The notes under the pieces are model-generated. The model was not told the origin of the DNA. It saw only the letters and a program-made list of their open reading frames with translations, and made no database searches. A DNA stretch of 64,000 nt from an uncultured Syntrophaceae bacterium (GTDB taxonomy: Bacteria > Desulfobacterota > Syntrophia > Syntrophales > UBA2192), in NCBI GenBank assembly GCA_964585095.1, contig CAZPCN010000004.1:9415-73414 (forward strand), read 5' to 3'. This document shows positions 15,878 through 31,800 of this stretch, one piece after another. The first letter of the stretch is position 1; each line of letters begins with the position of its first letter. The position numbers and the translations under genes were made by a program.

Positions 15878-16717
15878 TCACAGGAGGTAGCTGTGCAGGC
15901 TGTCGAGGTAATTCACGCCCAGATACGTGAACAGCACCGAGGCAAAGCCCGCGATGGCCATGATCGCAACGCGTTTGCCCCTCCAGCCCCGCACGAGGCG
16001 GGCGTGGAGCAGGGCCGCGTAGATGAGCCACGTGATGAGCGACCAGGTCTCCTTCGGGTCCCAGCTCCAGTAGGACCCCCAGGCGAAATTCGCCCAGACC
16101 GATCCCGTGATGATCCCCAGCGACAGGAAAATGAAGCCCATGATCGTACTGTGGTAAATCAGTTCCTCGATGGTCCGCTCGTCGGGGAAATGCCCGCCGC
16201 CCTTACCGGGGTTCCCCGAACCGGAGACGAAGCGCCGGGCGAAGAACAGCACGCCCAGCCCGAAGGCAATCGTGAAGGCGCCGTACCCCATGAAGCAGGT
16301 CACCACGTGGCTCGTGAGCCAGTTGCTCTGCAGGGCGGGGATCAGGGGCTGGATCCGCGTCGCCTCGTCGGGGGAGAGGGACGCGTAGGCCATCGAGAGG
16401 AAGGCCACGGGCGTCACGAAAGGGCCGATGACCCGGTTCTTGATCCGCCACTCCGTGACGAGGTAGAGCAGCATGATCGCCCAGGAGAAGAAGATCATGG
16501 ATTCGTAGAAATTCGCCAGGGGCGCGTGGCCGAGTCCCATCTGGTAGGATTCCCACCAGCGCACGACGATGCCGATTGTGTGCAGGGCGAGGCCGGCGGA
16601 GGCCGTCCCCGTGGCGAGCTTCCCCCAGTATTCATCGTCGCGCAGCAGGCGAATCAGGTAGAAGGCCATGGCAAGAAGGTAGATGACCGTCGCCCAGCCG
16701 AGCATTTTCGTGTTCAT
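15878..16717 (-). CDS. ccsA: Cytochrome c biogenesis protein CcsA/ResC (System II)
   Basis: Polytopic membrane protein with the WGSYWSWDPKE tryptophan-rich heme-handling motif. Confidence 0.9.
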   Translation of the reverse strand: MNTKMLGWATVIYLLAMAFYLIRLLRDDEYWGKLATGTASAGLALHTIGIVVRWWESYQMGLGHAPLANFYESMIFFSWAIMLLYLVTEWRIKNRVIGPFVTPVAFLSMAYASLSPDEATRIQPLIPALQSNWLTSHVVTCFMGYGAFTIAFGLGVLFFARRFVSGSGNPGKGGGHFPDERTIEELIYHSTIMGFIFLSLGIITGSVWANFAWGSYWSWDPKETWSLITWLIYAALLHARLVRGWRGKRVAIMAIAGFASVLFTYLGVNYLDSLHSYLL

Positions 16718-18150
16718 GCGGTTTCACCCCTGTAGAGACGGACGATCCGTCCGATCTCCCGATCGAGCTTCACGGCGTCCCGGTTACAGCGCCCCGCGAC
16801 GGACAGGCGCGCCTTGCCGTGCCTGCGGTCCACGCGGACGAAAACCTGCCGGTGGGACGAGAAGAAGGTCAGCAGAAAGCCGGCCACCAGGAGAAACGCC
16901 CCCGCCCCGACGACCGGGACACCGGGATCGCGGTTGACCTTGAGACCCGTGTAGAAGGACGTCTCGATCCCCTCGAGGCCGAAGCGGTAGGGCTTGTAGA
17001 GGCCCGCGTTGAACTGCGGCACCTGGCTCGTGATGCCCGGGTTCTGCTCCTCGATGGCGTCGATGAATTTGAACACCCAGAAGGAAAGGGCCCTGTCGCC
17101 GGCCGTGATGCCGACCTTGACGGCCGGCCCCATCCTCATCAGGTTCCCCTCGATGCGGAGGATCTCCACGTGAGCCTTCCCTCCGTCGATGGCGAAGCGC
17201 TCCCCCTGCCGGGCCCGTTTGACGGCACGCTGTCCCTTCCCTTCGATCGAGAGGACTGCCTCGCCGGGGATTTGGCCGTAGGTGGACTGGTAGAAGCGGA
17301 TCCCCTCGAACTCGAGGGGGTGGTTGACCATCAGGACACCCCGGGCCCTGATCTCCCCGCCCTTCAGGAAGGACAGGTCGGACCGGTAGAGCTTGGGCAT
17401 GCCGCTGTCGTAGAACTCGACGTTGAAGTCGTCGCACCGCACGTCGAACCCCAGTTTCATCTCCCCCTTGCCGCCCCGCAGCTCGATGGCACCGGCCGCT
17501 CCCCCCTCGGGGATGTTCACGTGCCCGTCGAAACCGAGGATGGAGCCGATGACGGAGCCGACGATGATGACGAAAACGCCCGCGTGGATCACGTAGACCC
17601 CGAAGTAGGACCATGCGCCCCGGTGGGCCGAAAGCCATACGGTCTCGCCCTCCTGCTTTCGCTCGACGGGGCCGAGGGATTTTTTCAGGACCTGCTCCAT
17701 CCGGGCCGCGGCGTCCTCCACGCTTCCCTCCGCCGCGATGACGCGCTCCGGGGGCAGACCCTCGTAGAGGCCTGCGCGGTCGGGATCCGGTCTCCTCCTG
17801 TAGAGTCGAAGCGAAACGGGAAGGCGGTTCAGCGAGCAGACGACGAGGTTGGCCGTGAGCAACCCCATCAGGAGAAGGAACCACGGCGAGCGGTACAGGT
17901 CGGTGACCTGCAGGGCCTTGACGATCCCCGCCAGGGCCGGCGGGAGCTTCTGAAGGCTTTCGCTTGCCGCCTCCTGCTGGGGGATCACGGTCCCCACGAC
18001 GGCGGCAAGAGCGATGATGATCAGCAGGGCAAGGGTCAGCCTGACCGACGAAAAGAACGACCAGACCGGGTTTTTCGATTTCGTTTTTTCTTCCTGCAAA
18101 CGATTGTCTCCGCGTTTCTTAATATCTTCAGCATCCGGGTTGCGAGGCAT
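16714..18150 (-). CDS. resB: Cytochrome c biogenesis protein ResB/CcsB (System II)
   Basis: N-terminal FFSSVRLTLALLIIIALAAVVGTVIPQ is a ResB signature. It has a large periplasmic loop. It is translationally coupled to ccsA (4-nt overlap). Confidence 0.85.
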   Translation of the reverse strand: MPRNPDAEDIKKRGDNRLQEEKTKSKNPVWSFFSSVRLTLALLIIIALAAVVGTVIPQQEAASESLQKLPPALAGIVKALQVTDLYRSPWFLLLMGLLTANLVVCSLNRLPVSLRLYRRRPDPDRAGLYEGLPPERVIAAEGSVEDAAARMEQVLKKSLGPVERKQEGETVWLSAHRGAWSYFGVYVIHAGVFVIIVGSVIGSILGFDGHVNIPEGGAAGAIELRGGKGEMKLGFDVRCDDFNVEFYDSGMPKLYRSDLSFLKGGEIRARGVLMVNHPLEFEGIRFYQSTYGQIPGEAVLSIEGKGQRAVKRARQGERFAIDGGKAHVEILRIEGNLMRMGPAVKVGITAGDRALSFWVFKFIDAIEEQNPGITSQVPQFNAGLYKPYRFGLEGIETSFYTGLKVNRDPGVPVVGAGAFLLVAGFLLTFFSSHRQVFVRVDRRHGKARLSVAGRCNRDAVKLDREIGRIVRLYRGETA

Positions 18151-18158
18151 TCCTGTCT

Positions 18159-18187
18159 TTTCTTACCCTCTTATCCTCTTACCTTCC
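18159..18187. repeat. Solitary period-8 pyrimidine-rich arm
   Basis: TTCTTACCCT CTTATCCT CTTACCTT CC lies between the resB start and the ftsH stop. It uses the same word family as 14525-14564. Confidence 0.5.
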
Positions 18188-20001
18188 TAGGCTGCCGGCG
18201 CTTTGCCGTCCATCAAATCCCTCAGCTCCGAGCCCTCGATCTTCTCCCGCTGGAGCAGAAGCTTGGCCCCCCGGTCGAGGACGGCCCTCTTGCCGGCAAG
18301 AATGGATTTCGCAACCGCGTACTGGGCGTCGATGATGGCCCGGATCTCGCGGTCGATGAGCTCCGCCGTGGCCTCGCTGTAATCGCCGCCCTCGGGGGCC
18401 ATGGTGTCGAGAAAAGCCGTTCGCTTCTCCCGCGCAAAGTAGACCTGCCCCACCTCGGAACTCATCCCGTACTCCTTGACCATGCTGCGCGCGATCTCCG
18501 TGGCGCGGGCAAGGTCGTTGTGCGCCCCCGTGGAGATGTCGCCGAACACGGTCTCCTCGGAGGCACGGCCGCCGAGGAGCGTCGCGACCCGGTTCAGGAG
18601 CTCCGTCTTCTTCATGAGGAAGCGGTCCTCCGTCGGTGCCTGCATGGTGTAGCCCAGCGCCGCGATGCCGCGCGGGATGATCGAGATCTTCTGCACCGGG
18701 TCCGTTCCGGGCAGCGACAAGGCGACGATGGCGTGTCCGAGTTCGTGGTAGGCCACGATCTCCCGCTCCTGGGGGTTGATGAGACGGTTCTTTTTTTCGA
18801 GGCCGGCCACGACCCGCTCGATGGCCTCCACGAACTCCGTCATCCCCACCTCCTCCTTTTCGTGCCGGACGGCGAGCAGGGCGGCCTCGTTGATGAGATT
18901 TGCCAGGTCGGCGCCCACCATGCCCGGCGTCATGCCCGCGATTTTCTCCAAGTCGACGTCGGTGCCGAGTTTCACGTTGCGGACGTGCACCTTCAGGATG
19001 TCCTCCCTGCCCTTCTTGTCCGGCCGGTCGACGAGAACGTGCCGGTCGAACCGCCCCGCCCGGAGCAGGGCCGGGTCGAGGATCTCGGGCCGGTTTGTCG
19101 CGGCCATCAGGATGACCCCCGCGTTGGCGTCGAAGCCGTCCATCTCGGTCAGCAGCTGGTTCAGGGTCTGCTCGCGCTCGTCGTGGCCGCCGCCCGGCAT
19201 GGCGAACCCGCGCGCCTTACCGAGCGCGTCGAGCTCGTCGATGAAGATGATGCAGGGGGCCTTCTGCTTGGCCTGCTCGAACAGGTCGCGCACCCGCGCC
19301 GCGCCGAGGCCGACGAACATCTCGACGAATTCGGAGCCGCTGAGGCTGAAGAAGGGAACGGCGCTCTCTCCGGCTACGGCCTTGGCGAGCAGCGTCTTTC
19401 CCGTCCCGGGGGGCCCCACGAGAAGGATGCCCTTGGGGATGCGGCCGCCGAGTCCCGTGAACTTCTTCGGGTACTTGAGGAACTCGATGACTTCCTGAAG
19501 CTCCTGCTTCGCCTCGTCTACGCCGGCCACGTCCTTGAAGGTGATCTTGATCTCGTTCTCCATGTAGATCTTGGCCTTGCTCTTCCCCAGCGTCATGAAG
19601 CCGGCCTGCTGCCCGCCCATGCGCTTCATGAGGAGGTACCAGATGCCGAAGAAGATCACGATCGGGAAGACCCACGAGAACAGGTCGCGCAGGAACGTGC
19701 TCTCCACTTCCCCCTTGAAGGTCACCTGGTACTTGTCGAGCAGCTCCGAGAGGTCCTGGTCCACCCGGTTGGTCCGGAAGGGCTGCGTCTCGCCGGGCTT
19801 GCCTTCCACCTTCATCTTCCCCTCGATGCGGTTGGCCGAGATGGCCACCTCGGTGACCTTGCCCTCCTTGAGCAGCTTCAGGAACTGGCTGTAGGGCACC
19901 ACTTGCGAGCTCATCATGGAGGCGAGGTAGCTCTGGATGAGCAGGACCGCCCACACCGCCAGAAGGATGTAGAACAGGGAAAATTTGTGCTCCTTTTTCA
20001 T
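18187..20001 (-). CDS. ftsH: ATP-dependent zinc metalloprotease FtsH
   Basis: N-terminal TM, Walker [14 protein letters not shown], Walker [13 protein letters not shown] region, and HELGHA zinc site. Confidence 0.95.
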
Positions 20002-20207: not shown

Positions 20208-20525
20208 TTACGGCAGTTTCGCCTGGTACTCCTTCAGCAGCCCGTCGATCCGGATTTCCAGCTCCACGAAGGCATCCTTCAATTTCTTTGCCTCATCGGT
20301 CAAACGCATGCCCTGGCGGTTGTCGGTCAGCTCCACGAGGGGAATCCCCAACCTGTCCTCGGAGGCCCTCAGACGCCCCCACGCGGCGCGGTAAGACATC
20401 TTGAGTTTCTTCGCCGCGGCGCTGAGGCTCTGGCATTCCTCGATCGCCTCGAGCAATTCGAATCGGCCCGGCCCGAAAATGACGCGATCGTTCTTTTCGA
20501 GCCACAGCTTGTGCCTGATTTTCAT
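20208..20525 (-). CDS. ModE N-terminal-like winged-helix DNA-binding protein (no Mop/TOBE domains)
   Basis: The 105-aa product has GPGRFELLEAIEECQSLSAAAKKLKMSYRAAWGRL, the ModE/LysR-type HTH pattern. It is divergent from the first AOR operon. Confidence 0.75.
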   Translation of the reverse strand: MKIRHKLWLEKNDRVIFGPGRFELLEAIEECQSLSAAAKKLKMSYRAAWGRLRASEDRLGIPLVELTDNRQGMRLTDEAKKLKDAFVELEIRIDGLLKEYQAKLP

Positions 20526-20609
20526 GTCTGCTCCTCTTCGGCCCCCGGCGGAGGATCGGCGGTCCGGGCGCCACGGAATCGCGTGCTATTCTGCACGACA
20601 AGGCCGCTT

Positions 20610-20642
20610 ATGTCAAACATGGCATAACTAGTTGATATAATT
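20610..20642. promoter_or_regulatory. Operator-like conserved palindromic block, copy 1
   Basis: ATGTCAAACATGGCATAACTAGTTGATATAATT is near-identical to 23857-23889. It contains ATGTCA-N4-TGrCAT and an AACTAGTT palindrome. It ends 21 nt before the -35 box, the same spacing as in copy 2. Confidence 0.55.
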
Positions 20643-20663
20643 GCGCTTTTGAGAAGATAAAAT

Positions 20664-20693
20664 TTGACTTCCCTCCCGCGATACGCATATAGT
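20664..20693 (+). promoter_or_regulatory. Sigma-70-like promoter, AOR operon 1
   Basis: TTGACT-N18-TATAGT. The homologous position upstream of operon 2 has TTGACT-N17-TATATT. Confidence 0.55.
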
Positions 20694-21104
20694 GCCTCTC
20701 GAACGAAGACCGTCACGCGCGGCACTTTCGTATTCCCGGGCCGATTTTCATTCAGGGTTCACCGCCCTGAGCGTATTCACGGGGTCAGCACAATCTGGGG
20801 GTCATCGGTGCGGGAAGCGTTGCCCGATGGGTTCGCATGGGTCGGCAATGCCGCGCAGGACAATCGAGAACAGACGGTCGTCACGGATCCCGGATGATTG
20901 CCACACCGCCCCCTTCTCATCTTTCCGCCCTGCACGGCGATTTCCGCCCGTGGCCTTTTCCCGTTCCCGGTGCTTCACCGGGAAAACAGAAGCCCTCGTC
21001 GCAAACCGATTCACCGAAGAAAAGAAAACGCCGGAAAGGGGGGATCAGAGCGTACCCGCTTGACGTAAAGCCGTTAACACGAGGCAATCCAATGGAGGTC
21101 AGAC

Positions 21105-21851
21105 ATGGAAGAAAAGAAACTGCCTGATGTTCTCAAGAAGGAGACGAGCCGTCGCGACTTCTTGAGAGGGACCGCCACGGCGGCGGGAAGCGCGATTGCG
21201 ATTTCCGCCATCGGCGGCATCGCCCCCAAAAAGGCCGAGGCCCAGTACTCGGTCCAGACCGCACCGGGCACCAAGCCCTACGCGCAGAAGTTCCTCTATA
21301 CCGCGCGCCACAACTGCACGGGCTGCCGCAGCTGCGAGCTGGCCTGTTCGCTGTTCCACACCGGCAATGTCCGCCCCGACATGGCCCGCATCTGGATCGA
21401 AAAGTACAAGGACATCGTCGACGTGCCGGTCATCTGCTGGCAGTGCGACGACGCCCCCTGCATCGCCGCGTGCCCCACGACGCCGAAGGCGATCACGCGC
21501 GACGCCAAGAGCAACGGCATCATCCTCAACGAGAAGATCTGCCTGGGCGCCAAGTGCATGAAGTGCGCCGAAGCCTGTCCGGCCAAGTACGTCCGCGGCA
21601 ACCCCGACACGGGCCAGCCCCTGATCTGCGATCTCTGCGGCGGCGACCCCCAGTGCGTCAAGGCCTGCCATGCCCAATCCGGCAACCCCCAGGGGCCCAG
21701 CCTCATGAGCCGCCCCGTCGGCATCGGCATGAACATGTCCTTCCGTAACGTCACGCCGGAAGAGGCGGGCAAGGATCTCGCGCACCTCCTGTTCTACCCC
21801 AACGTCGAGGGCAAGAGGGTTGTGCCCGCGAAGACCAGGAAAGGGAGGTGA
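21105..21851 (+). CDS. Tat-signal 4x[4Fe-4S]-type polyferredoxin (DmsB/HybA/YdhX-like), partner of AOR-1
   Basis: Twin-arginine motif SRRDFLRG with an AEA-Q cleavage-like site. Four Cys clusters are present (CTGCRSCELAC, CWQCDDAPCIAACP, CLGAKCMKCAEACP, CDLCGGDPQCVKAC). Confidence 0.85.
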   Translation: MEEKKLPDVLKKETSRRDFLRGTATAAGSAIAISAIGGIAPKKAEAQYSVQTAPGTKPYAQKFLYTARHNCTGCRSCELACSLFHTGNVRPDMARIWIEKYKDIVDVPVICWQCDDAPCIAACPTTPKAITRDAKSNGIILNEKICLGAKCMKCAEACPAKYVRGNPDTGQPLICDLCGGDPQCVKACHAQSGNPQGPSLMSRPVGIGMNMSFRNVTPEEAGKDLAHLLFYPNVEGKRVVPAKTRKGR

Positions 21852-21856
21852 TCACC

Positions 21857-23683
21857 ATGGCAACACCCAAAGGCGGAAATTTCGGAAAGGTACTGGAGAT
21901 CGACCTCAGCACGCAGACAGCCAAGACGAGGTCAATCCCCGATGAGGTCTACCAGCAGTTTGTCGGCGCCCGCGGCCTCGGGGCCTACTTCGCCGTGAAA
22001 GAGTACAAGGCCGGCAAGAACCCGCTGGACGAGGATGCCTTCGTGTTCGTGGGTCCCGGCCCCCTGGCCGGGACCATGTGCGTCTCCCCGCGAACCTGCA
22101 TCGTCAACAAGAACCCCTACACGGGGCTTCTGAACCACGGCGAGTGCGGCGCCCACCTGGCGAGCGAGATCAAGTGGGCCGGCTGGGACGGCATCTACAT
22201 AAAAGGACGGGCGAAGAAGCCCATATGGTTCTCCGTCGTCAACGACAAGGTCGAGTTCAAGGACGCCTCGAAGATGTGGGGCAAGACCACGGACGACACC
22301 CACGAGATGATGATCAAGGACATGAAGGACTCCCGCATCCGCTCGATCGTCATCGGCCCCGCGGGCGAGAACGGTGTCCCCTATTCCTGCCTGATCGTCG
22401 AGCGGTTCCGCGCCGCGGCGCGCAGCAATGCGGGAATCGTCTTCGGCGACAAGAAACTGAAGGGCTTCGCCGTGCGCGGCACGAAGTATGCCGTGCCCGT
22501 CGTCGACAACGCCAAGTTCCTGGCGGCTGCGAACGTCGCCAAGGAGACCAACATCAGCGACCCTGGAGCGGGACGGCGGAAGGTGTGGGGAACGGCCAGT
22601 TCGATGGAGACCAACAACTTCGTCCTCGGCTCGCTCATCGTGAAGAACTTCCAGACCACCTGGTGGCCCGACGTCGTCAAGCTGGGCGCCGAGGAGGCCG
22701 AGAGAAAGTTCTGGAAGCGCCACGTCTCCTGCACCAACTGCCAGACGCACTGCCTGAAACTGGGCGTGCTGCGCGAAGGCAAGTACAAGGGTCTCATCGC
22801 CGAGGCCCCCGAGTACGAGTCCGGCGGGCTCCTGGGGACGAACCTGGGCATGAAGGACTTCGACCAGATGGCCGCCCTCATCGAGGCCTGCGACGCCTAC
22901 GGGCTGGATTACATCTCCACGGGCGGCGTGCTGGGCTTCACGACGGAAGCCGTCGAGAAGGGAGCCCTGAAACCCTCTGACCTCGACGGCCTGAAGCCCA
23001 CCTGGGGCGACGGCGACACCTACATGAAGCTGATCGACAAGATCGCCTACAAGCAGGGCAAAGCCGGCAAGCTCCTCTCCCAGGGTGTCGCCCGCATGTC
23101 CAAGCGGATCGGCAAGGGCACCGACGCCTACGCCAACGTGGTGAAGGGCCGCGAGATGGCTGCCCACGACCCGCGGGGCGACAAGAACCGGTTCTACACC
23201 TATTGCATCGGCACCAACGGGGCGGACCACGCCGAGGGCGCAAGCAGCAGCGATCTGTGTCGGGTGGCCATGAACGACTCGCTGTGCCTGTGCACCTTCA
23301 CCTCCTCCGGAGTCTGGGGCGCCTCGACGGACAAGATCGTCGTGGACATGCTCAACCCGCTGTGCGGCTGGAACTGGAAGACCGATGACTACTGGATGGC
23401 CGGAAAGCGCATCCTGACGGCCGAGCGCGTCTTCAACGTCCGCGAGGGAATCAGCTCCAAGGACGACCGGCTGCCCAAGCGTTTTTACGCGGAAAAGCTG
23501 CCCGCCGGGCCGAAGAAGGGCGTCGTCTTCACCGAGGAGGACCATACGAAGCGCCAGACCGACGCCTATAAGTTCCTCGGATGGGACGAGAAAGGCGTAC
23601 CGACGGAGGCCTCTCTCAAGGCCTACGGTCTCGACTTCCTGATTGAGGACCTCAACGCGGCAAGAAAGAAATACAACCTGTAA
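21857..23683 (+). CDS. Aldehyde:ferredoxin oxidoreductase family (tungsto/molybdopterin) enzyme, copy 1
   Basis: AFOR N-domain pattern (KVLEIDLS...GARGLGAYF...GPGPLAGT...IGPAGENGVPYSC...KGFAVRG). A CTNCQTHC FeS motif. GLDYISTG and DSLCLCTF pterin-binding-type motifs. ATG follows GGGAGG; the ORF-track GTG at 21848 is an alternative start. No signal peptide. Confidence 0.9.
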   Translation: MATPKGGNFGKVLEIDLSTQTAKTRSIPDEVYQQFVGARGLGAYFAVKEYKAGKNPLDEDAFVFVGPGPLAGTMCVSPRTCIVNKNPYTGLLNHGECGAHLASEIKWAGWDGIYIKGRAKKPIWFSVVNDKVEFKDASKMWGKTTDDTHEMMIKDMKDSRIRSIVIGPAGENGVPYSCLIVERFRAAARSNAGIVFGDKKLKGFAVRGTKYAVPVVDNAKFLAAANVAKETNISDPGAGRRKVWGTASSMETNNFVLGSLIVKNFQTTWWPDVVKLGAEEAERKFWKRHVSCTNCQTHCLKLGVLREGKYKGLIAEAPEYESGGLLGTNLGMKDFDQMAALIEACDAYGLDYISTGGVLGFTTEAVEKGALKPSDLDGLKPTWGDGDTYMKLIDKIAYKQGKAGKLLSQGVARMSKRIGKGTDAYANVVKGREMAAHDPRGDKNRFYTYCIGTNGADHAEGASSSDLCRVAMNDSLCLCTFTSSGVWGASTDKIVVDMLNPLCGWNWKTDDYWMAGKRILTAERVFNVREGISSKDDRLPKRFYAEKLPAGPKKGVVFTEEDHTKRQTDAYKFLGWDEKGVPTEASLKAYGLDFLIEDLNAARKKYNL

Positions 23684-23694
23684 GATGCCATTCA

Positions 23695-23740
23695 AACAAG
23701 GGCGGGTGAGCGAATCACCCGCCCTTGTTCTATCTTTCCT
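23695..23740 (+). terminator. Stem-loop after AOR-1 (15-bp stem), weak T-tail
   Basis: AACAAGGGCGGGTGA-gcgaa-TCACCCGCCCTTGTT is homologous to the hairpin after AOR-2. Confidence 0.5.
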
Positions 23741-23856
23741 TCCTTCCAGCCCTTTTCTGCCTGAAGATTGCCCGGATATCGCTCTTTCAGGAATAATCCC
23801 TGCACTGCGGAACGGGTCGGTTGAAACGCCAGCATGCCTGCACGGCAGAGGCACCT

Positions 23857-23889
23857 ATGTCATACTTGACATAACTAGTTGATATGATT
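23857..23889. promoter_or_regulatory. Operator-like conserved palindromic block, copy 2
   Basis: ATGTCATACTTGACATAACTAGTTGATATGATT. ATGTCA-N4-TGACAT is a perfect inverted repeat here. Confidence 0.55.
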
Positions 23890-23910
23890 ATGCAAATCTT
23901 GAAAAAAAGT

Positions 23911-23939
23911 TTGACTAACGCCGTGCATGCGTCTATATT
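23911..23939 (+). promoter_or_regulatory. Sigma-70-like promoter, AOR operon 2
   Basis: TTGACT-N17-TATATT, 21 nt downstream of the operator-like block. Confidence 0.55.
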
Positions 23940-24308
23940 GCTTCGCGGGCGGAGAGCGTTCATCGTTAATCCGTTCGCGAGCAAGGGTTCCTTCTCTTTC
24001 CAGCACTCCGAAGGAAATTCTTGCGAGGGGGAGGCAGCAGTCAGGGGAGTCGTTGTTCGAAAAGCCGGCTTGGCCAGCGGCTTGCAGCGGGGGGGTTTTC
24101 TCCGCTGCGCGGTACAAGACCGGTAGTATGCGACGGATCCCGGATGATTGCGGCAACAACCCAACTTCATGGCTCTCATCTTCGCCGAGTAAGCAATCCG
24201 GTATTCCCGCACGAACGCAATCGACATTCCACGGCACACTACGCAAGACACGCGCATGACCTGCGTTCGGAGCGAGGTCTCGCGTGCTTTTCGAAAGGAG
24301 TTTGAGTC

Positions 24309-24800
24309 ATGAAGAAGGGATTGCTTGTATTCACCATCGTACTCGCCGTAACGCTCGCCCTGTCGGGCATGCTCTTCGCCCAGGGAAAGAAGGGCCCCGC
24401 CGCCAGCGGCAAGGCTCTGTGGGATTACATCCAGAAGGAGAAGTACCAGAGCTGGAAGATGTGGCCCGGCACCGAGGCCCAGTACAAGGGCCCCGAGCCC
24501 CACGGCGCCTTCCTGACGACCTACGTCAACCAGGCCGCCTTCGACTCCATCAAGGCCAAGAAGGGCAAGTTTGCCGACGGGGCCATGATCGTCCAGGACA
24601 ACTTCGACAAGAACAAAAAGCTCAAGCACATCGACGTCATGTACAAGGTGAAGGGCTATAACCCCAAGGGCGGCGACTGGTTCTGGGCGCAGTACAAGCC
24701 GAGCGGCAAGGTGGACCAGGAGGGAAAGATCGACGAGTGCATCAAGTGCCACGAGGCCCAGAAGGGGAACGACTACGTCTACACGAGCAAGATGAAGTAA
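24309..24800 (+). CDS. Cytochrome P460-family-like periplasmic c-type heme protein
   Basis: Sec-type signal peptide (MKKGLLVFTIVLAVTLALSGMLFAQG). GGDWFWAQY block. A single C-terminal CIKCH heme c motif. RBS GAAAGGAG. Confidence 0.65.
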   Translation: MKKGLLVFTIVLAVTLALSGMLFAQGKKGPAASGKALWDYIQKEKYQSWKMWPGTEAQYKGPEPHGAFLTTYVNQAAFDSIKAKKGKFADGAMIVQDNFDKNKKLKHIDVMYKVKGYNPKGGDWFWAQYKPSGKVDQEGKIDECIKCHEAQKGNDYVYTSKMK

Positions 24801-24950
24801 GCGCTCCCGCCGGGATCGCCGCGCGACTCGGCAGGAGGAACCGATCGAACAGAAAAGCCGAAATCAGAGACATCTCGAAAGGAGGTATCCCGGTTTCATT
24901 TCGTTGATGTGTCAAGCCGTTAACACGAGGCAATCCAATGGAGGTCAGAC

Positions 24951-25703
24951 ATGGAAGAAAAGAAACTGCCTGATGTTCTCAAGAAGGAGACGAGCCGTCG
25001 CGACTTCTTGAGAGGGACCGCCACGGCGGCGGGAAGCGCACTCGCGATTTCCGCCATCGGCGGCATCGCCCCGAAGAAGGCCGAGGCCCAGTACTCGGTC
25101 CAAGGCGTGCCGGGCACCCCGCCCTACGCGCAGAAGTACCGTTTCGCCGAGCGCCACAACTGCACGGGCTGCCGGAGCTGCGAGTTTGCCTGCTCGCTGT
25201 TCCACACCGGCAACGTCCGCCCTGCCCTGTCGCGCATCTACATTGCCAAGTACAAGGACATGGTCGACGTGCCGGTCATGTGCTGGCACTGCGACGACGC
25301 GCCCTGCATCGCCGCATGCCCCACGACGCCGAAGGCGATCCAGAAGGATGCCAAGACCAACGGCATCGTCCTCAACGAGAAGATCTGCCTGGGCGCCAAG
25401 TGCATGAAGTGCCAGGAGGCCTGCCCGGCCAAGTACATCCGCGGCAACCCCGACACGGGCCAGCCCCTGATCTGCGATCTCTGCGGCGGCGACCCCCAGT
25501 GCGTCAAGGCATGCCAGGAGCAGTCCGGCAACCCCCAGGGCCCCTGCCTCATGGGACGGCCTGTCGGCATCGGCGTGAACATGGCCTACCGCTCCGTCAC
25601 GCCGGAAGAAGCAGGTAAGGATCTCGCGAACCTCCTGTTCTATCCCAACGTCGAGGGCAAGAGGGTCGTGCCCGCGAAGTCCAAGACCAAGAAGGGGAGG
25701 TGA
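24951..25703 (+). CDS. Tat-signal polyferredoxin, partner of AOR-2 (paralog of 21105-21851)
   Basis: Same architecture as copy 1 and roughly 85 percent identical to it by my manual alignment. The first 89 coding nt, plus 37 nt upstream, are identical to copy 1. Confidence 0.85.
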   Translation: MEEKKLPDVLKKETSRRDFLRGTATAAGSALAISAIGGIAPKKAEAQYSVQGVPGTPPYAQKYRFAERHNCTGCRSCEFACSLFHTGNVRPALSRIYIAKYKDMVDVPVMCWHCDDAPCIAACPTTPKAIQKDAKTNGIVLNEKICLGAKCMKCQEACPAKYIRGNPDTGQPLICDLCGGDPQCVKACQEQSGNPQGPCLMGRPVGIGVNMAYRSVTPEEAGKDLANLLFYPNVEGKRVVPAKSKTKKGR

Positions 25704-25708
25704 GAACC

Positions 25709-27535
25709 ATGGCAACACCCAAAGGCGGAAATTTCGGAAAGGTACTGGAGATCGACCTGAGCAAGCAGACCTACAAGACGCGTACGGTCTCCGATGAGAT
25801 CCTCCAGCAGTATATCGGCGGGCGCGGCCTCGGGGCCTACTACGCCGTGACGGAATACAAGGCGGGCAAGAACGCCCTCGACGAGGACGCCTTCGTATTC
25901 GTGGGGCCCGGGCCCCTGTCGGGCACCATGGCCGTCTCCCACCGGACCTGCTTCGCCCACAAGAGCCCCTACACGGGCCTCATGACCCACGCCGAGACGG
26001 GCGCCCACCTGGCCAGCGAGATCAAGTTCGCCGGCTGGGACGGCCTCTACATCAAGGGCCGGGCCAAGAAACCCACGTGGTTCACCGTCGTGAACGACAA
26101 GGTCGAGTTCAAGGACGCCTCCAAGATGTGGGGCAAGACCACCGACCAGACCCACGAGATGATGATCAAGGAAATGAAGGACCCCGAAATCCGTACGGCC
26201 GTCATCGGCCCCGCCGGGGAGAACGGCGTCCCCTACTCCTGCATCATCGTCGAGCGCTTCCGCGCCGCCGCCCGCAGCGGCACCGGCATGGTCTTCGGCG
26301 ACAAGAAGCTCAAGGGCTTCGCCGTGCGCGGCACGAAGTACGCCGTGCCCGTCGCGGACAACGCCAAGTTCCTGGCTGCCGCCAAGGTCAACAAGGACAA
26401 CAACGTGCGGCGCGAGGCCTGGGAGGGCATCAAGCGCTGGGGTACGGGCGGCCTGATGGAGCTCAAGCACTACCTCCACGGCTCGCTCATCGTAAAGAAC
26501 TACCAGACCACCTGGTTCCCCGACGTCATCAAGATCGGCGGCGAGGAGGCGGCCCGGACGTTCTGGAAGCGGCACGCGTCCTGCACCAACTGCCCGACGC
26601 ACTGCCTGAAGCTGGGCGTCATCCGCAGCGGCAAGTACGCGGGGATGGTCGCCGAGGGCCCCGAGTACGAGTCCGGCGGCCTGCTGGGATCGAACCTGGG
26701 CATGACGAAGTTCGACGAGATGATCGCCCTCATCGAGGCCTGCGACGCCTACGGCCTCGACAACATCTCCACGGGCGGCGTGCTCGCCTTCACGACGGAA
26801 GCCGTCGAGAAGGGCGCCCTGAAGCCCACGGACCTCGACGGCCTGAAGCCCAAGTGGAACGACGGCGACACCTACATGGAGATGATCCGCAAGATCGCCT
26901 ACCAGGAAGGCAAGGCCGGCAAGCTCATGGCCAAGGGCGTCAGGAAGATGTCCAAGGAAATCGGCAAGGGCTCCGAAGCCTACGCCAACCACACCAAGGG
27001 CAAGGAACTGGCGGCCCACGACCCGCGGGGCGACAAGATTCGCGCCTACAGCTACACGATGGGCACCTGCGGCGGCGACCACCACGAAGGCCAGGGGCCC
27101 CAGGCCCTCGGCATGACGGCGATGGCCGACTCGCTGTGCATCTGCTCCTTCACCAACTTCCTCGTCTACGGCGCAGGCACGGACAAGATCATCACCGACA
27201 TGCTCAACCCGCTGTGCGGCTGGAACTGGAAGCCGGAGGACTACTGGACCACGGCGAAGCGCATCTTCACGCTGGAGCGCGTCTTCAACGTCCGCGAGGG
27301 CATCAGCTCCAAGGACGACCGGCTGCCCATCCGCATGTACAAGGAGAAGCTGCCTGCAGGACCTCGGAAGGACGTCATCTTCACCGATGCCGATCAGAAG
27401 GACATGGAGACCAAGACCTACGGGTTCTTCGGCTGGGACGCCAAGGGCATCCCGACGGAAGCCACCCTCAAGGCCTACGGCCTCGATTACCTGATCGCCG
27501 ACGTCAACGCGGCGAAGAAGAAGTACAACCTCTAA
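25709..27535 (+). CDS. Aldehyde:ferredoxin oxidoreductase family enzyme, copy 2
   Basis: Collinear paralog of 21857-23683 with the same motifs (CTNCPTHC, GLDNISTG, DSLCICSF). ATG follows GGGGAGG. Confidence 0.9.
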   Translation: MATPKGGNFGKVLEIDLSKQTYKTRTVSDEILQQYIGGRGLGAYYAVTEYKAGKNALDEDAFVFVGPGPLSGTMAVSHRTCFAHKSPYTGLMTHAETGAHLASEIKFAGWDGLYIKGRAKKPTWFTVVNDKVEFKDASKMWGKTTDQTHEMMIKEMKDPEIRTAVIGPAGENGVPYSCIIVERFRAAARSGTGMVFGDKKLKGFAVRGTKYAVPVADNAKFLAAAKVNKDNNVRREAWEGIKRWGTGGLMELKHYLHGSLIVKNYQTTWFPDVIKIGGEEAARTFWKRHASCTNCPTHCLKLGVIRSGKYAGMVAEGPEYESGGLLGSNLGMTKFDEMIALIEACDAYGLDNISTGGVLAFTTEAVEKGALKPTDLDGLKPKWNDGDTYMEMIRKIAYQEGKAGKLMAKGVRKMSKEIGKGSEAYANHTKGKELAAHDPRGDKIRAYSYTMGTCGGDHHEGQGPQALGMTAMADSLCICSFTNFLVYGAGTDKIITDMLNPLCGWNWKPEDYWTTAKRIFTLERVFNVREGISSKDDRLPIRMYKEKLPAGPRKDVIFTDADQKDMETKTYGFFGWDAKGIPTEATLKAYGLDYLIADVNAAKKKYNL

Positions 27536-27551
27536 CCGTCTGATTTTCACG

Positions 27552-27600
27552 GCAAGGGCGGGTGACTTGCTCACCCGCCCTTGCTTTTCCTTTTTGCTTT
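27552..27600 (+). terminator. Intrinsic terminator after AOR-2
   Basis: GCAAGGGCGGGTGA-cttgc-TCACCCGCCCTTGC followed by TTTTCCTTTTTGCTTT. Confidence 0.7.
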
Positions 27601-27683: not shown

Positions 27684-28385
27684 ATGGCCTTTTCACGCAG
27701 GGACACAATCCAGCTTCTCGTCAGCGGGGCGGTTTCGACCGCCATCTTCGGCCTCTTTAAGGTAAGCGGGGCCAGGGAAATTCCGCGCCCGCCCGGTGCC
27801 CTCGAAGAAAAATCCTTCCTCGAGTATTGCGCGCGCTGCTATCGGTGCGTCGACGTCTGCCCCACCGACGCGATCCGTCCGGCCGGCCTCGAAGGCGGCA
27901 TCACAAGCTTCGGCACCCCCATTCTGCGCCACAAGGAATGCATCTTCTGCATGGCCTGCATCAAGGAGTGCCCCACGGGGGCCATCGCGAAGATCTCCCG
28001 CGACGAGGTCGACATCGGCAACGCCGTCATCGACCGCTCAACCTGCCTGGCCTGGACGGGCCAGGAGGACTGCACGCGCTGCTTCGACGCCTGCCGCTAC
28101 GACGCCATCAAGCTCGAGAAGGACAAGTACCCCGTCGTCCTCGAGGACCCCTGCACGGGCTGCAACGCCTGCGAGAAACGCTGCCCCACGAAACCCAAGT
28201 CGATCGTCTGCCACTACGACAAGGTGAAGCGAATCCCGCCGCCGGAAAAGCGCGTCGCCCTGCGGCGCGAGGAAGAGGACGGACGGGGCCACGGACGCGA
28301 GGAGGGGTTTACGGACTGGCTGAAGAAGCGGGTGGAGAAGCTCCGGGAGCATTACGGGCTCGTTAAAGAGGAAGAGGAAGAATAA
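27684..28385 (+). CDS. NapG/MauM-like polyferredoxin with N-terminal RR-containing signal or anchor
   Basis: MAFSRRDTIQLLVSGAVSTAIFG, then four CxxCxxC(xxx)CP-type motifs (CARCYRCVDVCP, CIFCMACIKECP, CTRCFDACRYDA, CTGCNACEKRCP). Acidic C-terminal tail. Confidence 0.7.
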   Translation: MAFSRRDTIQLLVSGAVSTAIFGLFKVSGAREIPRPPGALEEKSFLEYCARCYRCVDVCPTDAIRPAGLEGGITSFGTPILRHKECIFCMACIKECPTGAIAKISRDEVDIGNAVIDRSTCLAWTGQEDCTRCFDACRYDAIKLEKDKYPVVLEDPCTGCNACEKRCPTKPKSIVCHYDKVKRIPPPEKRVALRREEEDGRGHGREEGFTDWLKKRVEKLREHYGLVKEEEEE

Positions 28386-28435: not shown

Positions 28436-29647
28436 ATGAAGATTACAGACAAGAAAACCAAAACCGTGCTTGTGGTAGGAGGCGGGGTGGCCGGGATATC
28501 GGCGGCCCTCGACCTGGCCGGCAACGGCCACCGGGTACACCTCGTCGAGAAGGGCCACGACCTGGGCGGCCAGGTGGCGAAGCTCGACAAGTTCTACCCG
28601 ACGGACCACTGCGCCTTCTGCCCCCTCTGGACGGAAATCCGCCGATGCAAGGAAGACGAGGCGATTGCCGTCCACCCGCTCTCCCGCGTGGAGACCCTCG
28701 AGCAGCAGACCGGGGGGTACCGGGCCGTCGTCGTCCAGTCGGCGCCCGTCGTCGACCCGTCGCTCTGCATCAACTGCGGCCGCTGTGAAACGGCATGCCC
28801 GAAAGACCTCGCGAAGCCGATCTGGGAACACGCCTACCCGCCCGTCCACGTCATCGACGGGACTCGCTGCGGGGACTGCCGCGCCTGTGTGGCGGCATGC
28901 CCCGTGAAGGCCATCGCCTTCGACCGGGAAGAGCAGCGCATCGCGCTGGACGCGGACGAGGTCATCTGGGCGGCGGGCTTCGACGAAGTGAGCCTCGCCC
29001 CGATGAAGGAATACGGGTGGGGGACGCACCCGGACATCCTCACGTCGCTCGAGTTCGAGGCCTGGAAGGCCGAGGCGGGCGACAACCGGGGCAAAATCAT
29101 CCGGCGCTCCGACCGATCCGCGCCCCGGAACATCCTCTTCGTGCAGTGCGCGGGCGCACGGGACCTGAGGCTCCTGCCCCACTGCTCCGCCGTCTGCTGC
29201 ATGCATGCGCTCAAGCAGGCCCAGTGGGTCAAGCGAAGAAACCCGGACATCGACTGCATCATCCTCTACACGGACCTGCGCACCGTGGGGAGGGACTACT
29301 ACGAGTACGCCCTGCGCGATTTCAACGGCAACGTCGTCCGCCTCGTCCGGGGACGTTCCTCGCTCATCACCCCCCTGCCCGGCGGCAACGGGATTGCCGT
29401 GAAGTACGAGGACACGATCACAGGAAAGCGCGAGATCCGGCAGTTCGACATGGTCGTCCTCAACGGGAACCTGCAGTCCTCCCTCGCGTCGAAGCCGTCG
29501 CCGAAGGCGCGGCCGGAGCTGAGCGGCGAGGGGTTCGTGACAGCGGCGTCCGTCTCCTGCGGGTTCGTCATGGAGCCGGCGGATGTAACGGAATCGGCGA
29601 TCCAGGCGGCATCGGCGGCACTCAGAACGATTACGGACAAGAACTGA
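28436..29647 (+). CDS. HdrA/QmoA-like FAD- and FeS-containing flavoprotein (short form)
   Basis: VLVVGGGVAGISAALDLA...LVEKGHDLGGQVAKLDKFYPTDHCAFCPLW. Inserted ferredoxin motif CINCGRCETACP. FVQCAGARD...CSAVCCMHALK, as in HdrA/Qmo proteins. Confidence 0.8.
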   Translation: MKITDKKTKTVLVVGGGVAGISAALDLAGNGHRVHLVEKGHDLGGQVAKLDKFYPTDHCAFCPLWTEIRRCKEDEAIAVHPLSRVETLEQQTGGYRAVVVQSAPVVDPSLCINCGRCETACPKDLAKPIWEHAYPPVHVIDGTRCGDCRACVAACPVKAIAFDREEQRIALDADEVIWAAGFDEVSLAPMKEYGWGTHPDILTSLEFEAWKAEAGDNRGKIIRRSDRSAPRNILFVQCAGARDLRLLPHCSAVCCMHALKQAQWVKRRNPDIDCIILYTDLRTVGRDYYEYALRDFNGNVVRLVRGRSSLITPLPGGNGIAVKYEDTITGKREIRQFDMVVLNGNLQSSLASKPSPKARPELSGEGFVTAASVSCGFVMEPADVTESAIQAASAALRTITDKN

Positions 29648-29648
29648 A

Positions 29649-31355
29649 ATGGCAAAGATCGGCGTCCTTCTCTGCAACTGTTTCGGCGAGATCGGCAACA
29701 CCGTCAACCTGGAGTCCATCCGGGAACGGCTCGCGTCCGACCCCTCGGTGGACTTCGTGACCATCCGTGAGTCCCTCTGCCAGCCGGGCGATGCCTCTGC
29801 GGTGCATGCCATGCTCCGCGAGCGCGGGATCGGAAAGGTGCTCCTCGGCGCCTGTTCACCCTACGGCAGGATGGAAGCCGTGCGTCTCGGTCTCGCGAAG
29901 GAGGGCGTCGACGTCAGGACCGTGCGCGCCGCGGACCTGCGCGAAGGTTGCGCCTGGATCCACGGGAAAGACCCCGGGGGCGCGACGCGCAAGGCGGCAA
30001 ACCAGCTGGACATGGAACTTGCCCTCCTGCAGAACACGCAGGATTCGAAGGACATCGACATCCGTCTCCGGCGCGAGGCGCTGGTGATCGGAGCGGGGCC
30101 CGCGGGCCTCTCGGCCGCCTGCGGCCTGGCCCGCATGGGAATCAGGGTGCACCTCGTCGATCGTGGGACGGCCCCCGGCGGCCTTCTCAACGTGGTGACG
30201 AAGGTGTACCCGACGGAGCTGTCGGGACCGGAGAAACTCAAGCCCCTTGTCGAGATGGCGGGCAACAACCCCCTCATCCGTTTTTATGGGAAGACCAAAG
30301 TTGCCTCGGTGAAGGGGTATGCCGGCGATTTCAAGGTCTCCCTCGCTGGACCGGAAGGAAACACGAGCCTGCGCGTGGGGGCCGTCGTGCTCGCCACGGG
30401 GGCGCGCCTCCTGTTCCCCCAGGGGCTCTACGGTTACGGGAAAACGAAGAACGTGATCACCCAGATGGAGATGGAGAGGCAGTTCGCGACGGGGAAGGTC
30501 GCCTGCAGGACGGCCGTCTTCATCCAGTGCGTCGGCGCCCGCTGCGCCGAGCGGCCCTACTGCTCGACCATCTGCTGCCCGATGTCCCTGAAGAATGCCA
30601 TGCGGATTCTCGACGAGGTGCCCGGTTCGAAGGCCGTGATCCTGCACCGCGACATCATGACACCGGGAAGCGTCCTGGAGGCTTTTTACCGCAAGGCCCT
30701 GCACAGGGGCGTCCAGTTCATCCGCTTCGATGCGGACAAGCCCCCGCAGGTCAGGGGCGACGGCCAGGTGAGCGGCGTCGAGGTCTTCGACGTCCTGAGC
30801 GGGATGACCCGTTCGATCGAGACAGACCTGCTCGTCCTGAGCACTCCGCTCGTGGCCGACCCGGATAGCGCGGCGCTTGCCCGCATGCTCGAGATCCCCG
30901 TGGACAAGCACGGCTTCATCGCCGAGGTCTACCCGGTTCACCCCGTGGAGACGCGAAACGACGGCGTCTTCATCTGCGGGACGGCCCGCTGGCCCGTCTC
31001 GTCGGACCAGGCCATCGCGCAGGGCGAGGCGGCAGCCGTGAAGGCGGCCTCCTTCCTCGGGCGGGAAACGGTCTCTGCTCTCACCATGAGCCGGGTCCCG
31101 GGCTCCAAGCTCGGCCATGCGGCGGCCAACGCCGATGCCTGCACGGGCTGCGGCAACTGTGTTGTCGTCTGCCCTTACGGGGCCTGCAAGCTGCAGCGAA
31201 CGGGGCAGCGCTCCGTGAGCCGGGTGATCAAGGTCCGCTGCAAGGCCTGCGGAAGCTGCGCGTCGGTCTGCCCCAACGGGGCGATGCAGATCCCCGAGCA
31301 GAACTACCGGGTCACGGGAGCCATGATCCGCCGTGCTTTCCGGGAGGTGCGCTGA
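29649..31355 (+). CDS. HdrA/QmoB-like flavoprotein with N-terminal Cys-rich domain and C-terminal 2x[4Fe-4S]
   Basis: KIGVLLCNCFGEIG N-domain. ALVIGAGPAGLSAA FAD motif. FIQCVGARC...CSTICCPMSLKNA. C-terminal CTGCGNCVVVCP and CKACGSCASVCP. It starts 1 nt after the previous stop. Confidence 0.8.
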   Translation: MAKIGVLLCNCFGEIGNTVNLESIRERLASDPSVDFVTIRESLCQPGDASAVHAMLRERGIGKVLLGACSPYGRMEAVRLGLAKEGVDVRTVRAADLREGCAWIHGKDPGGATRKAANQLDMELALLQNTQDSKDIDIRLRREALVIGAGPAGLSAACGLARMGIRVHLVDRGTAPGGLLNVVTKVYPTELSGPEKLKPLVEMAGNNPLIRFYGKTKVASVKGYAGDFKVSLAGPEGNTSLRVGAVVLATGARLLFPQGLYGYGKTKNVITQMEMERQFATGKVACRTAVFIQCVGARCAERPYCSTICCPMSLKNAMRILDEVPGSKAVILHRDIMTPGSVLEAFYRKALHRGVQFIRFDADKPPQVRGDGQVSGVEVFDVLSGMTRSIETDLLVLSTPLVADPDSAALARMLEIPVDKHGFIAEVYPVHPVETRNDGVFICGTARWPVSSDQAIAQGEAAAVKAASFLGRETVSALTMSRVPGSKLGHAAANADACTGCGNCVVVCPYGACKLQRTGQRSVSRVIKVRCKACGSCASVCPNGAMQIPEQNYRVTGAMIRRAFREVR

Positions 31356-31356
31356 C

Positions 31357-31800
31357 ATGACTTCCGCAGCAGCCAGCACGAACATTCTCGTCTTCGCCTG
31401 CCGCTGGTGCGGCCTCATCGGGGCCGACGGCGCCGGGCGCAGGCGCACGGAACTGCCCGCCTCCTTCCGGGTCATCCCCGTGGAGTGCGCGGGGTACGTG
31501 GAGCCCGACGCGGTGATCCGCGCCTTCGCGAGCGGCGCGGCGGGCGTGGCCGTCCTGGGCTGCCACGTGGGAGGGTGCCGGTTCAACGACGCCAACCACC
31601 CTGCCCTCAAGCGCCTGGAGCTGCTCAAGACGCTCCTCGACGCGACGGGCATCGGCGGCAACCGGCTGCTGCTCGGGTTCGGCACGGCGCACGAGTACCA
31701 CCAGTGGGCCGACACGATCCGGGACTTCCACAAACACGTGGAGGGACTGCCCTCGATGAAGTCGTGGCTGCCCGCGGCGGCCGTGACCGGTGAACGGTGA
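31357..31800 (+). CDS. MvhD-like (methyl-viologen-reducing hydrogenase delta subunit family) protein
   Basis: ILVFACRWCGLIGADGAG...IPVECAGYVEPD...VAVLGCHVGGCRF is the MvhD/FlpD pattern. ATG lies 1 nt after the upstream stop. The ORF-track start at 31333 overlaps the upstream gene and seems less likely. Confidence 0.8.
   Translation: MTSAAASTNILVFACRWCGLIGADGAGRRRTELPASFRVIPVECAGYVEPDAVIRAFASGAAGVAVLGCHVGGCRFNDANHPALKRLELLKTLLDATGIGGNRLLLGFGTAHEYHQWADTIRDFHKHVEGLPSMKSWLPAAAVTGER

Follow-up and report, generated by a model that had tools for sequence, protein, structure and literature searches.

We analysed a stretch of 64,000 nucleotides (nt) from the genome of an uncultured Syntrophaceae bacterium (contig CAZPCN010000004.1 of assembly GCA_964585095.1, positions 9,415 to 73,414; hereafter the window), which contains two gene pairs, each encoding a ferredoxin of the WorS small-subunit type (Fd1 and Fd2) followed by a large subunit of the AOR family (AOR1 and AOR2). 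In both pairs a twin-arginine (Tat) signal peptide is present on the ferredoxin alone and the AOR partner is without any, which is the pattern of a hitchhiker, and we consider Tat export of the signal-less AOR together with its ferredoxin to be the best reading, and a probable one, of the sequence features and of a model of the complex. The idea of a periplasmic AOR-family enzyme has already been published: Putumbaka et al. 2026 (Front Microbiol, June 2026; PMC13328260) place the WORs in five classes, of which Class V is defined by a Tat signal on WorS. What is new here, judging from sequence comparison, is an Fd-AOR pair outside clade 41, the sole clade said to hold Tat-signal WORs. The principal features are as follows (all coordinates are those of the window).

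21105-21851, forward strand: Fd1 gene, encoding a WorS-type small subunit of 248 amino acids (aa) predicted to hold four [4Fe-4S] clusters (Pfam Fer4_11)
21105-21242, forward strand: twin-arginine signal peptide of Fd1 (residues 1-46), identified from the translation and NCBIfam TIGR01409
21857-23683, forward strand: AOR1 gene from its ATG (the open reading frame [ORF] begins at GTG 21848), encoding a signal-less WorL large subunit of 608 aa
24951-25703, forward strand: Fd2 gene, encoding a second Tat-signal WorS (250 aa; signal peptide 24951-25088)
25709-27535, forward strand: AOR2 gene from its ATG (ORF from 25700), encoding a second signal-less WorL

Fd1 and Fd2 begin with the sequence MEEKKLPDVLKKETSRRDFLRGTATAAGSA(I/L)AISAIGGIAPKKAEA, followed after the predicted cleavage site by QYSVQ. 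In Fd1, the n-region is basic and carries TSRRDFLRG (consensus S-R-R-x-F-L-R), the h-region GTATAAGSAIAISAIGGIA is 19 residues long and weakly hydrophobic, and the c-region is PKKAEA, after which comes Q. Each of the three parts of a Tat signal (twin-arginine [RR] motif, moderately hydrophobic h-region and AxA site) is found in both ferredoxins, and the Tat signal domain TIGR01409 is matched at 21.6 and 22.3 bits, above its cut-off of 16.7. The motif is rare in this organism: a strict search for [STGN]RRxF[LIVM][KRQG] plus a hydrophobic stretch finds only eight ORFs in the 3.16-Mb genome, two of which are Fd1 and Fd2. The genome also encodes the machinery itself, with TatC (E-value [E] 4.9e-77) and three TatA/B/E genes, one of them adjoining tatC.

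This signal is conserved across the ferredoxin family, for which we assembled 122 sequences with identity down to approximately 50%, 118 of them full length. The RR pair is kept in all 118 full-length homologues and the longer motif [ST]RRxF[LIM][KRQE] in 115 of them; an AxA-like site lies 20-36 residues past the RR, with a residue other than Pro at +1, in 117. Across 39 aligned ferredoxins (50% identity at the lowest), R16, R17 and F19 never vary, the -1 Ala (A46) is at least 90% conserved, and the h-region varies in sequence while remaining constant in character. Together, these properties are the mark of a working, cleavable signal and not of a remnant. Neither Fd1 nor Fd2 contains any 19-residue window that reaches a Kyte-Doolittle value of 1.6, which counts against a permanent anchor.

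Beyond the signal, Fd1 and Fd2 are recognizable WorS proteins. Four cluster motifs (CxxCxxCxxxC three times and CxxCxxxxxCxxxC once) account for the 16 Cys of each protein, enough for four [4Fe-4S] clusters, and all 16 are invariant in the family alignment. The best solved relatives are likewise WorS chains: the small subunit of WOR5 (6x6u_B; E 6e-28, 101 bits), 9mqx_E (E 4e-22) and AorA of Aromatoleum (8c0z_C; E 5e-22, 82 bits). Because these cytoplasmic relatives (WOR5-S and AorA) align only from about residue 61-69 of Fd1, the presequence is an addition. The family-specific additions comprise the first 46-60 residues and approximately 55 aa at the C-terminus, the latter being conserved in its own right. 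The family is compact, with about two full-length representatives left after clustering at 50% identity.

The large subunits are classical members of the AOR family. AFOR_N and AFOR_C are matched above their gathering cut-offs by both AOR1 (198.4 and 308.5 bits) and AOR2 (214.6 and 313.9 bits), with E between 1e-58 and 1e-93. The alignment of AOR1 to Pyrococcus furiosus AOR (1aor_A; 312.8 bits) pairs residue 7 of the query with residue 3 of the solved protein, leaving no room for a presequence. An N-terminal extension is likewise absent from the AOR homologues: the conserved N-terminal motif begins at residue 8-12 in 109 of 122, and the other 13 lack the motif and seem to be fragments. The absence of a signal peptide from the AORs, proposed earlier in a sequence-only reading of this DNA along with the twin-arginine signal on both ferredoxins, is borne out on both counts. 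AOR1 keeps the equivalents of C288, C291, C295, C494, Y312, E313, H448, D338 and D489 in the alignment to 1aor_A, and the columns for the cluster ligands, the pterin-binding Asp motifs and the E313 and H448 equivalents are invariant in the family alignment. With its cluster Cys, pterin Asp and Y312/E313/H448 residues retained, AOR1 looks like a working enzyme.

The two genes of a pair are closely joined. The Fd1 stop codon (TGA, 21849-21851) is overlapped by a Shine-Dalgarno sequence (GGGAGG, 21843-21848), and the AOR1 ATG follows at 21857 after a gap of 5 nt; an alternative start, GTG 21848, overlaps the Fd1 stop. The Fd2-AOR2 junction is arranged likewise (stop 25701-25703, GGGAGG on the stop, ATG at 25709), so that the earlier statement that each AOR follows its ferredoxin within a few nucleotides, with stop and candidate start adjacent or overlapping, applies to both units. 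As AOR homologues are 608 aa long, the ATG is taken as the AOR start. From this layout the ferredoxin and AOR genes look translationally coupled. The pairing extends beyond the window: in every related locus that has an upstream flank (L002-L014 and L028-L056 in our numbering), a Tat-signal ferredoxin gene lies directly 5' of the AOR gene.

A model of AOR1 with mature Fd1 gives an interface score (ipSAE) of 0.90 (0.89-0.91 in three runs), compared with 0.00 for the best control; in a benchmark, 58 of 80 solved complexes attained the same mark, as did 2 of 110 mismatched pairs. At least 92% of contacts recur between the runs, the predicted local distance difference test value (pLDDT) of the partner is at least 85, and the interface comprises 133-150 contacts. 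In the model, the AOR cluster loop (residues 290-301) faces the first ferredoxin cluster (72-76), and the C-terminal tail of the ferredoxin (229-245) also lies on the AOR. The model speaks to the likeness of the two proteins as a pair; the order of docking and export lies outside what such modelling covers.

Gene structure, the features and conservation of the signal, the cofactor ligands and the Tat machinery can all be read from the sequence. From these we infer a course of events covering formation of the complex before export, export, signal cleavage, substrate, metal and electron acceptor. The large subunit, with a tungsten- or molybdenum-pterin cofactor and one [4Fe-4S] cluster, and the small subunit, with four, would fold, gain their cofactors and dock in the cytoplasm. 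The Tat translocase would then read the twin-arginine signal of the small subunit and export the folded heterodimer, the large subunit being the hitchhiker, and signal peptidase I would cleave past AEA46 to free a soluble periplasmic enzyme. The periplasmic reaction would most likely be oxidation of an aldehyde to the acid, with electrons passing from the pterin to the [4Fe-4S] cluster of the large subunit, through the four clusters of the small subunit, and on to a periplasmic acceptor. A conserved candidate for this acceptor is the neighbouring NapG-like polyferredoxin, which might dock on a NapH-like membrane protein; a second candidate, in this genus, is a putatively co-transcribed P460-fold cytochrome.

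These candidates and the boundaries of the two units are located by the following additional features.

20208-20525, reverse strand: HTH_1 regulator of 105 aa (Pfam HTH_1, E 4.6e-13), divergent from unit 1
20664-20693, forward strand: sigma-70-like promoter candidate of unit 1, TTGACT-N18-TATAGT (10 of 12 consensus matches; pattern only), approximately 410 nt 5' of Fd1
23695-23729, forward strand: intrinsic-terminator-like hairpin after AOR1, with a 15-base-pair (bp) stem
23911-23939, forward strand: sigma-70-like promoter candidate of unit 2, TTGACT-N17-TATATT (10 of 12 consensus matches; pattern only)
24309-24800, forward strand: P460-fold monoheme protein, first gene of unit 2 (Pfam PF16694, E 8.5e-17)
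27551-27585, forward strand: intrinsic-terminator-like hairpin after AOR2, with a 15-bp stem and a T-run
27684-28385, forward strand: NapG/MauM-like polyferredoxin (NCBIfam NapG, E 1.9e-23, below the cut-off)

The hairpins at 23695-23729 and 27551-27585 are the two strongest terminator-like ones of the region. Promoter candidates and hairpins together delimit a unit 1 of Fd1-AOR1 and a unit 2 of P460-Fd2-AOR2. Metatranscriptome contigs covering the locus come from four libraries belonging to four studies, and some of them are identical and bridge the end of AOR1 to P460 and P460 to Fd2; we gave them no weight, since such contigs cannot prove transcription, operon structure or strand.

The P460-fold protein carries a signal of the Sec type and a single CxxCH motif, in agreement with the sequence-only reading, which had placed a periplasmic heme protein with one of the two copies. 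The NapG/MauM-like gene is always the next gene 3' of the AOR2-type copy, and 27 distinct orthologues conserve its N-terminus, made up of M-x-F-S-R-R-D, a hydrophobic stretch and SGA. It is followed, in order, by genes for two HdrA-like flavoproteins; for MvhD-like, FdhA-like molybdopterin and small Fe-S proteins; for a NapH-like (Fer4_5) membrane fusion protein with three hydrophobic segments; and for a short AFOR_N-only protein. Relatives at 50-60% identity (L009, L010, L012 and L013) retain this downstream set. The context can be read either way: the Hdr and formate dehydrogenase (FDH) parts are cytoplasmic types, and the NapG- and NapH-like parts are those that an electron route from periplasm to membrane would require.

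Export of the pair agrees with every sequence-level test that was run (signal conservation, pairing, Tat machinery and the heterodimer model), and is itself a prediction. Several observations weigh against it. No gene for a Tat proofreading chaperone is evident beside the Fd-AOR units, and some RR-bearing Fe-S or pterin proteins stay in the cytoplasm, such as E. coli NapF, or NarG with its remnant motif. The complex score may be memory, since like complexes have been solved (WOR5 L/S, 6x6u; AorAB, 8c0z). CsWOR41L, the only Tat-type WOR large subunit to have been assayed, oxidised none of 46 aldehydes though it bound W (PMC13328260). Finally, the conserved downstream neighbours include the two HdrA-like, MvhD and FdhA-like proteins, and if the AOR acts directly with Hdr/FDH-type partners of this kind, a cytoplasmic location would be simpler. 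The last point leads to an explanation in which the RR peptide is unused, as a remnant or a chaperone tag comparable to those of NarG and NapF, and the Fd-AOR pair stays in the cytoplasm, perhaps at the inner membrane face, feeding the Hdr-like flavoproteins and the FDH-like enzyme. The conservation of these neighbours across relatives at 50-60% identity fits such an arrangement, as does the resemblance of the mature ferredoxin to cytoplasmic WorS proteins (101 bits to WOR5-S, 82 bits to AorA). However, remnant signals shed the RR, the hydrophobic core or the cleavage site, and here all three are present in 115-118 of the 118 members. A terminator hairpin also separates each AOR from the genes downstream, a Sec-exported cytochrome lies within unit 2, and the next gene is NapG-like, with a conserved RR and a hydrophobic N-terminus, in a set that includes a NapH-like membrane protein, which suits a route across the membrane. 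We regard an unused signal as unlikely on this evidence.

Two further explanations accept Tat export and differ in what is exported or where it comes to rest. The ferredoxin might leave the cytoplasm alone, as a free periplasmic polyferredoxin, with the AOR remaining behind as a single-subunit (Class I-like) enzyme on soluble ferredoxin. The AOR is indeed most similar to the single-subunit P. furiosus AOR (312.8 bits), and sequence by itself gives no proof that docking precedes export. We give this explanation very little credence, because the pairing of ferredoxin and AOR is strict and apparent translational coupling is seen in all loci; because the modelled interface is extensive, brings the clusters face to face and involves the conserved C-terminal tail; and because the large and small subunits of the homologous WOR5 and AorAB share Protein Data Bank entries (6x6u and 8c0z). 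Alternatively, the signal might remain uncleaved as an N-terminal anchor, as in Rieske proteins, tethering the exported enzyme to the outer membrane face. PMC13328260 describes the Class V WORs as associated with the membrane, and 20 of the 118 family presequences do contain a 19-residue window at or above 1.6 on the Kyte-Doolittle scale. This is nevertheless very unlikely for Fd1 and Fd2, where all such windows fall below that value and basic residues precede the cleavage site (PKKAEA); across the family, the AxA-like site with its non-Pro +1 residue is present in 117 of 118. Co-export of the AOR with a ferredoxin whose signal is then cleaved is therefore the reading that we prefer.

The closest published systems are the Class V WORs, which make up more than 10% of the family, are membrane-associated and possess at least one additional subunit, and are said to be confined to clade 41 (YdhV/YdhY within the E. 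coli ydhYVWXUT operon, and Cetobacterium somerae CsWOR41LSW); their periplasmic orientation was deduced from the Tat signal (PMC13328260). The earlier expectation that a periplasmic AOR pair would be unusual has therefore been overtaken by this class. In the E. coli ydh operon that it cited, YdhV is an AOR-family protein, and the WorS partner is named as YdhY and not YdhX (PMC13328260); it is YdhX that has a clean RR, and YdhY reads RL. The pairs in the window resemble Class V in combining a signal-less AOR-family large subunit with a Tat-signal WorS of four [4Fe-4S] clusters, so that the defining Tat signal on WorS is present. They differ in the large subunit, in WorS and in the operon. The identity of AOR1 to YdhV is 29% (101 bits), and in phmmer comparisons AOR1 scores 92-120 bits against YdhV and YdhV-like proteins versus 313 bits against P. 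furiosus AOR; against the YdhV equivalog NCBIfam NF007354 (cut-off 868), AOR1 and AOR2 remain far below at 178.5 and 189.7 bits. The small subunit scores 101 bits against the cytoplasmic WOR5-S and 36-53 bits against clade-41 WorS. Unit 1 consists of the two genes only, closed by a terminator and without a membrane or extra subunit, and unit 2 adds a soluble P460-fold cytochrome; the NapG- and NapH-like genes are conserved neighbours but lie past a terminator.

True YdhV-like proteins do occur in the phylum: they are present in 8 of 151 sampled genomes, are 44-47% identical to E. coli YdhV and approximately 702 aa long, and come with their own Tat-signal ferredoxins. The genome studied here has no such protein. 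A quick maximum-likelihood (ML) tree resolves the present AOR family and the YdhV-like proteins as distinct clades, each fully supported, and other AORs fall between the two. In the accessible part of the source, the clade-41 genus list is without Desulforapulum and Desulfosarcina, which carry the present AOR family (PMC13328260). Identity, phmmer scores, the quick ML tree and that portion of the genus list thus set the family apart, and on these comparisons it is not clade 41. The family's own clade number was sought through two member accessions, C0Q9H6 and A0A5K7Z8C2, which are absent from the portion of the supplement text of PMC13328260 that was searchable.

The pairs also resemble the Class II WORs, which are cytoplasmic, ferredoxin-linked WorL-WorS enzymes (P. 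furiosus WOR5/ASOR, 6x1o and 6x6u; C. bescii GOR): the two-subunit architecture, the cluster content and the predicted cluster-to-cluster docking are alike. In contrast, WorS of Class II has no presequence, whereas the WorS of the window has a 46-aa Tat signal and the conserved C-terminal extension of approximately 55 aa; the conserved Tat presequence argues against membership in Class II. Among the 150 nearest WorS-type representatives of 50%-identity clusters, 32 have a Tat-like presequence (their partners were not checked), and in the 116 without one the first cluster is preceded by a median of 12 residues. A Tat-signal ferredoxin also accompanies two AORs at 36-37% identity, and AOR lineages 28-37% identical to AOR1 lie behind Tat-signal ferredoxins in L014:10815-14615, L025 and L026, in the first of which two ferredoxin genes precede the AOR. 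Given these other lineages, the Tat-signal architecture seems to recur across WOR clades.

In sulfate reducers, the periplasmic [NiFe] and [FeFe] hydrogenases are soluble two-subunit enzymes in which the Tat signal is on the small Fe-S subunit, the catalytic subunit hitchhikes, and cytochrome c3 is the acceptor. They differ from the AOR pair in catalytic family, in cofactor and in this acceptor: a search of the genome for a cytochrome c3 found one weak Cytochrom_CIII match only. Among functional analogues backed by experiment, the closest is E. coli PaoABC, described in PMC4273604 as a periplasmic aldehyde oxidoreductase exported as a ternary Tat hitchhiker. On that account it too is a pterin-cofactor aldehyde oxidoreductase in the periplasm, with the Tat signal on the Fe-S subunit alone and the catalytic subunit co-exported. 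It belongs, in contrast, to the unrelated xanthine oxidase family, has three subunits with molybdenum-MCD (molybdopterin cytosine dinucleotide) and flavin adenine dinucleotide as compared with the bis-pyranopterin AOR fold, and serves a detoxification role in an aerobic or facultative host.

The family described here adds the Tat-signal architecture on a classical AOR-like large subunit with intact catalytic residues, in syntrophic and sulfate-reducing Desulfobacterota. If export is true, a very low-potential, oxygen-sensitive tungsten enzyme would lie outside the cytoplasmic membrane, the five-class WOR scheme would be widened, and the pair would offer an entry point to the adjoining NapG/NapH-Hdr-FDH set. 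If it is not, a perfectly conserved yet unused Tat signal would be notable in itself. We know of no localisation experiment on a WOR of the Tat-signal type, and in the literature on Desulfobacterium and Syntrophus we found no localisation statement on this AOR family. The prediction is testable, as there is a cultured carrier, Desulforapulum autotrophicum HRM2 (Aor4, C0Q9H6); Desulfosarcina widdelii is the other named one.

The closest proteins and loci come from metagenome-assembled genomes of Syntrophales/Syntrophaceae, largely from digesters and wastewater. An AOR of at least 56% identity is present in 43 of 201 sampled genomes of the order, representing 16 of 65 genera, and within this sample two AOR copies occur only in the genus of the present organism. 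In a phylum-wide sample, none of the 150 other genomes has an AOR above 40% identity. The two Fd-AOR pairs of the window are a tandem duplication of approximately 2.65 kb, with nucleotide identity of 77-92% beginning approximately 40 nt 5' of each ferredoxin ATG. At the protein level, Fd2 is 86% identical to Fd1 and AOR2 is 73% identical to AOR1. AOR1 has evolved faster since the duplication, with a terminal branch of 0.23 in the quick ML tree compared with 0.093 for AOR2. Distant loci match AOR2 better than AOR1, and this, together with the shorter branch, identifies AOR2 as the ancestral-type copy. Near the H448 equivalent, AOR1 departs from residues that are near-invariant in the family (GTNGADHAEG in AOR1, GTCGGDHHEG in the family), a divergence which hints at a changed substrate or relaxed constraint. 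The genome encodes other AOR paralogues on contigs C204, C3 and C150, where the context is uninformative because the contigs are short or no Fe-S gene is adjacent.

The P460-fold gene is confined to same-genus loci that have the duplication. The nearest solved structure to the heme protein is cytochrome c'-beta of M. capsulatus (7zqz/6hih), a weak match (E about 1e-4). The protein is accordingly nearer, if weakly, to cytochrome c'-beta, a binder of nitric oxide and carbon monoxide, than to the hydroxylamine-oxidising P460.

Further downstream, 28436-31800 encodes the HdrA-like flavoproteins (one of 403 aa, the other of 568 aa) and, separately, an MvhD-like protein; we take this group to resemble QmoA plus a split QmoB. 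The fusion protein at 35774-37111 joins a polyferredoxin resembling DmsB to a membrane domain of the NapH type (Fer4_5) and a ferredoxin tail, and is followed by the AFOR_N-only short AOR-family protein at approximately 37108-38433. A tentative and rather doubtful extension of the export reading is that the AOR-WorS enzyme forms the periplasmic input module of a conserved transmembrane redox system of Syntrophales and certain Desulfobacterales. A substrate in the periplasm, an aldehyde or other compound, would give up electrons to the Tat-type NapG-like polyferredoxin, and these would pass through the NapH-like fusion across the membrane and on to the Qmo/Hdr-like flavoproteins, MvhD and the FDH-like enzyme. 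If so, a very low-potential extracytoplasmic oxidation would be coupled, on the cytoplasmic side, to electron bifurcation by flavins or to the reduction of CO2, and Tat-exported WORs would have arisen independently of the YdhV clade.

Leaders of approximately 370-410 nt (20694-21104 and 23940-24308) separate the promoter-like sites from the first ORFs of the two units and contain no convincing ORF. Rfam searches found no family in the whole window at gathering thresholds, nor in 20400-25000 at E up to 1. The divergent HTH_1 regulator, which belongs to the surroundings of the exported enzyme and is no part of it, has a LysR-type helix-turn-helix domain like that at the N-terminus of ModE, and its position is kept in five related loci (L002-L005 and L007). 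As an HTH_1-only protein, it may be a tungstate- or molybdate-responsive regulator without a ligand domain. Directly upstream of the regulator, on the reverse strand at 16714-20001, are genes for ResB (system II cytochrome c biogenesis) and FtsH, which are syntenic in L002, L004, L005 and L007.

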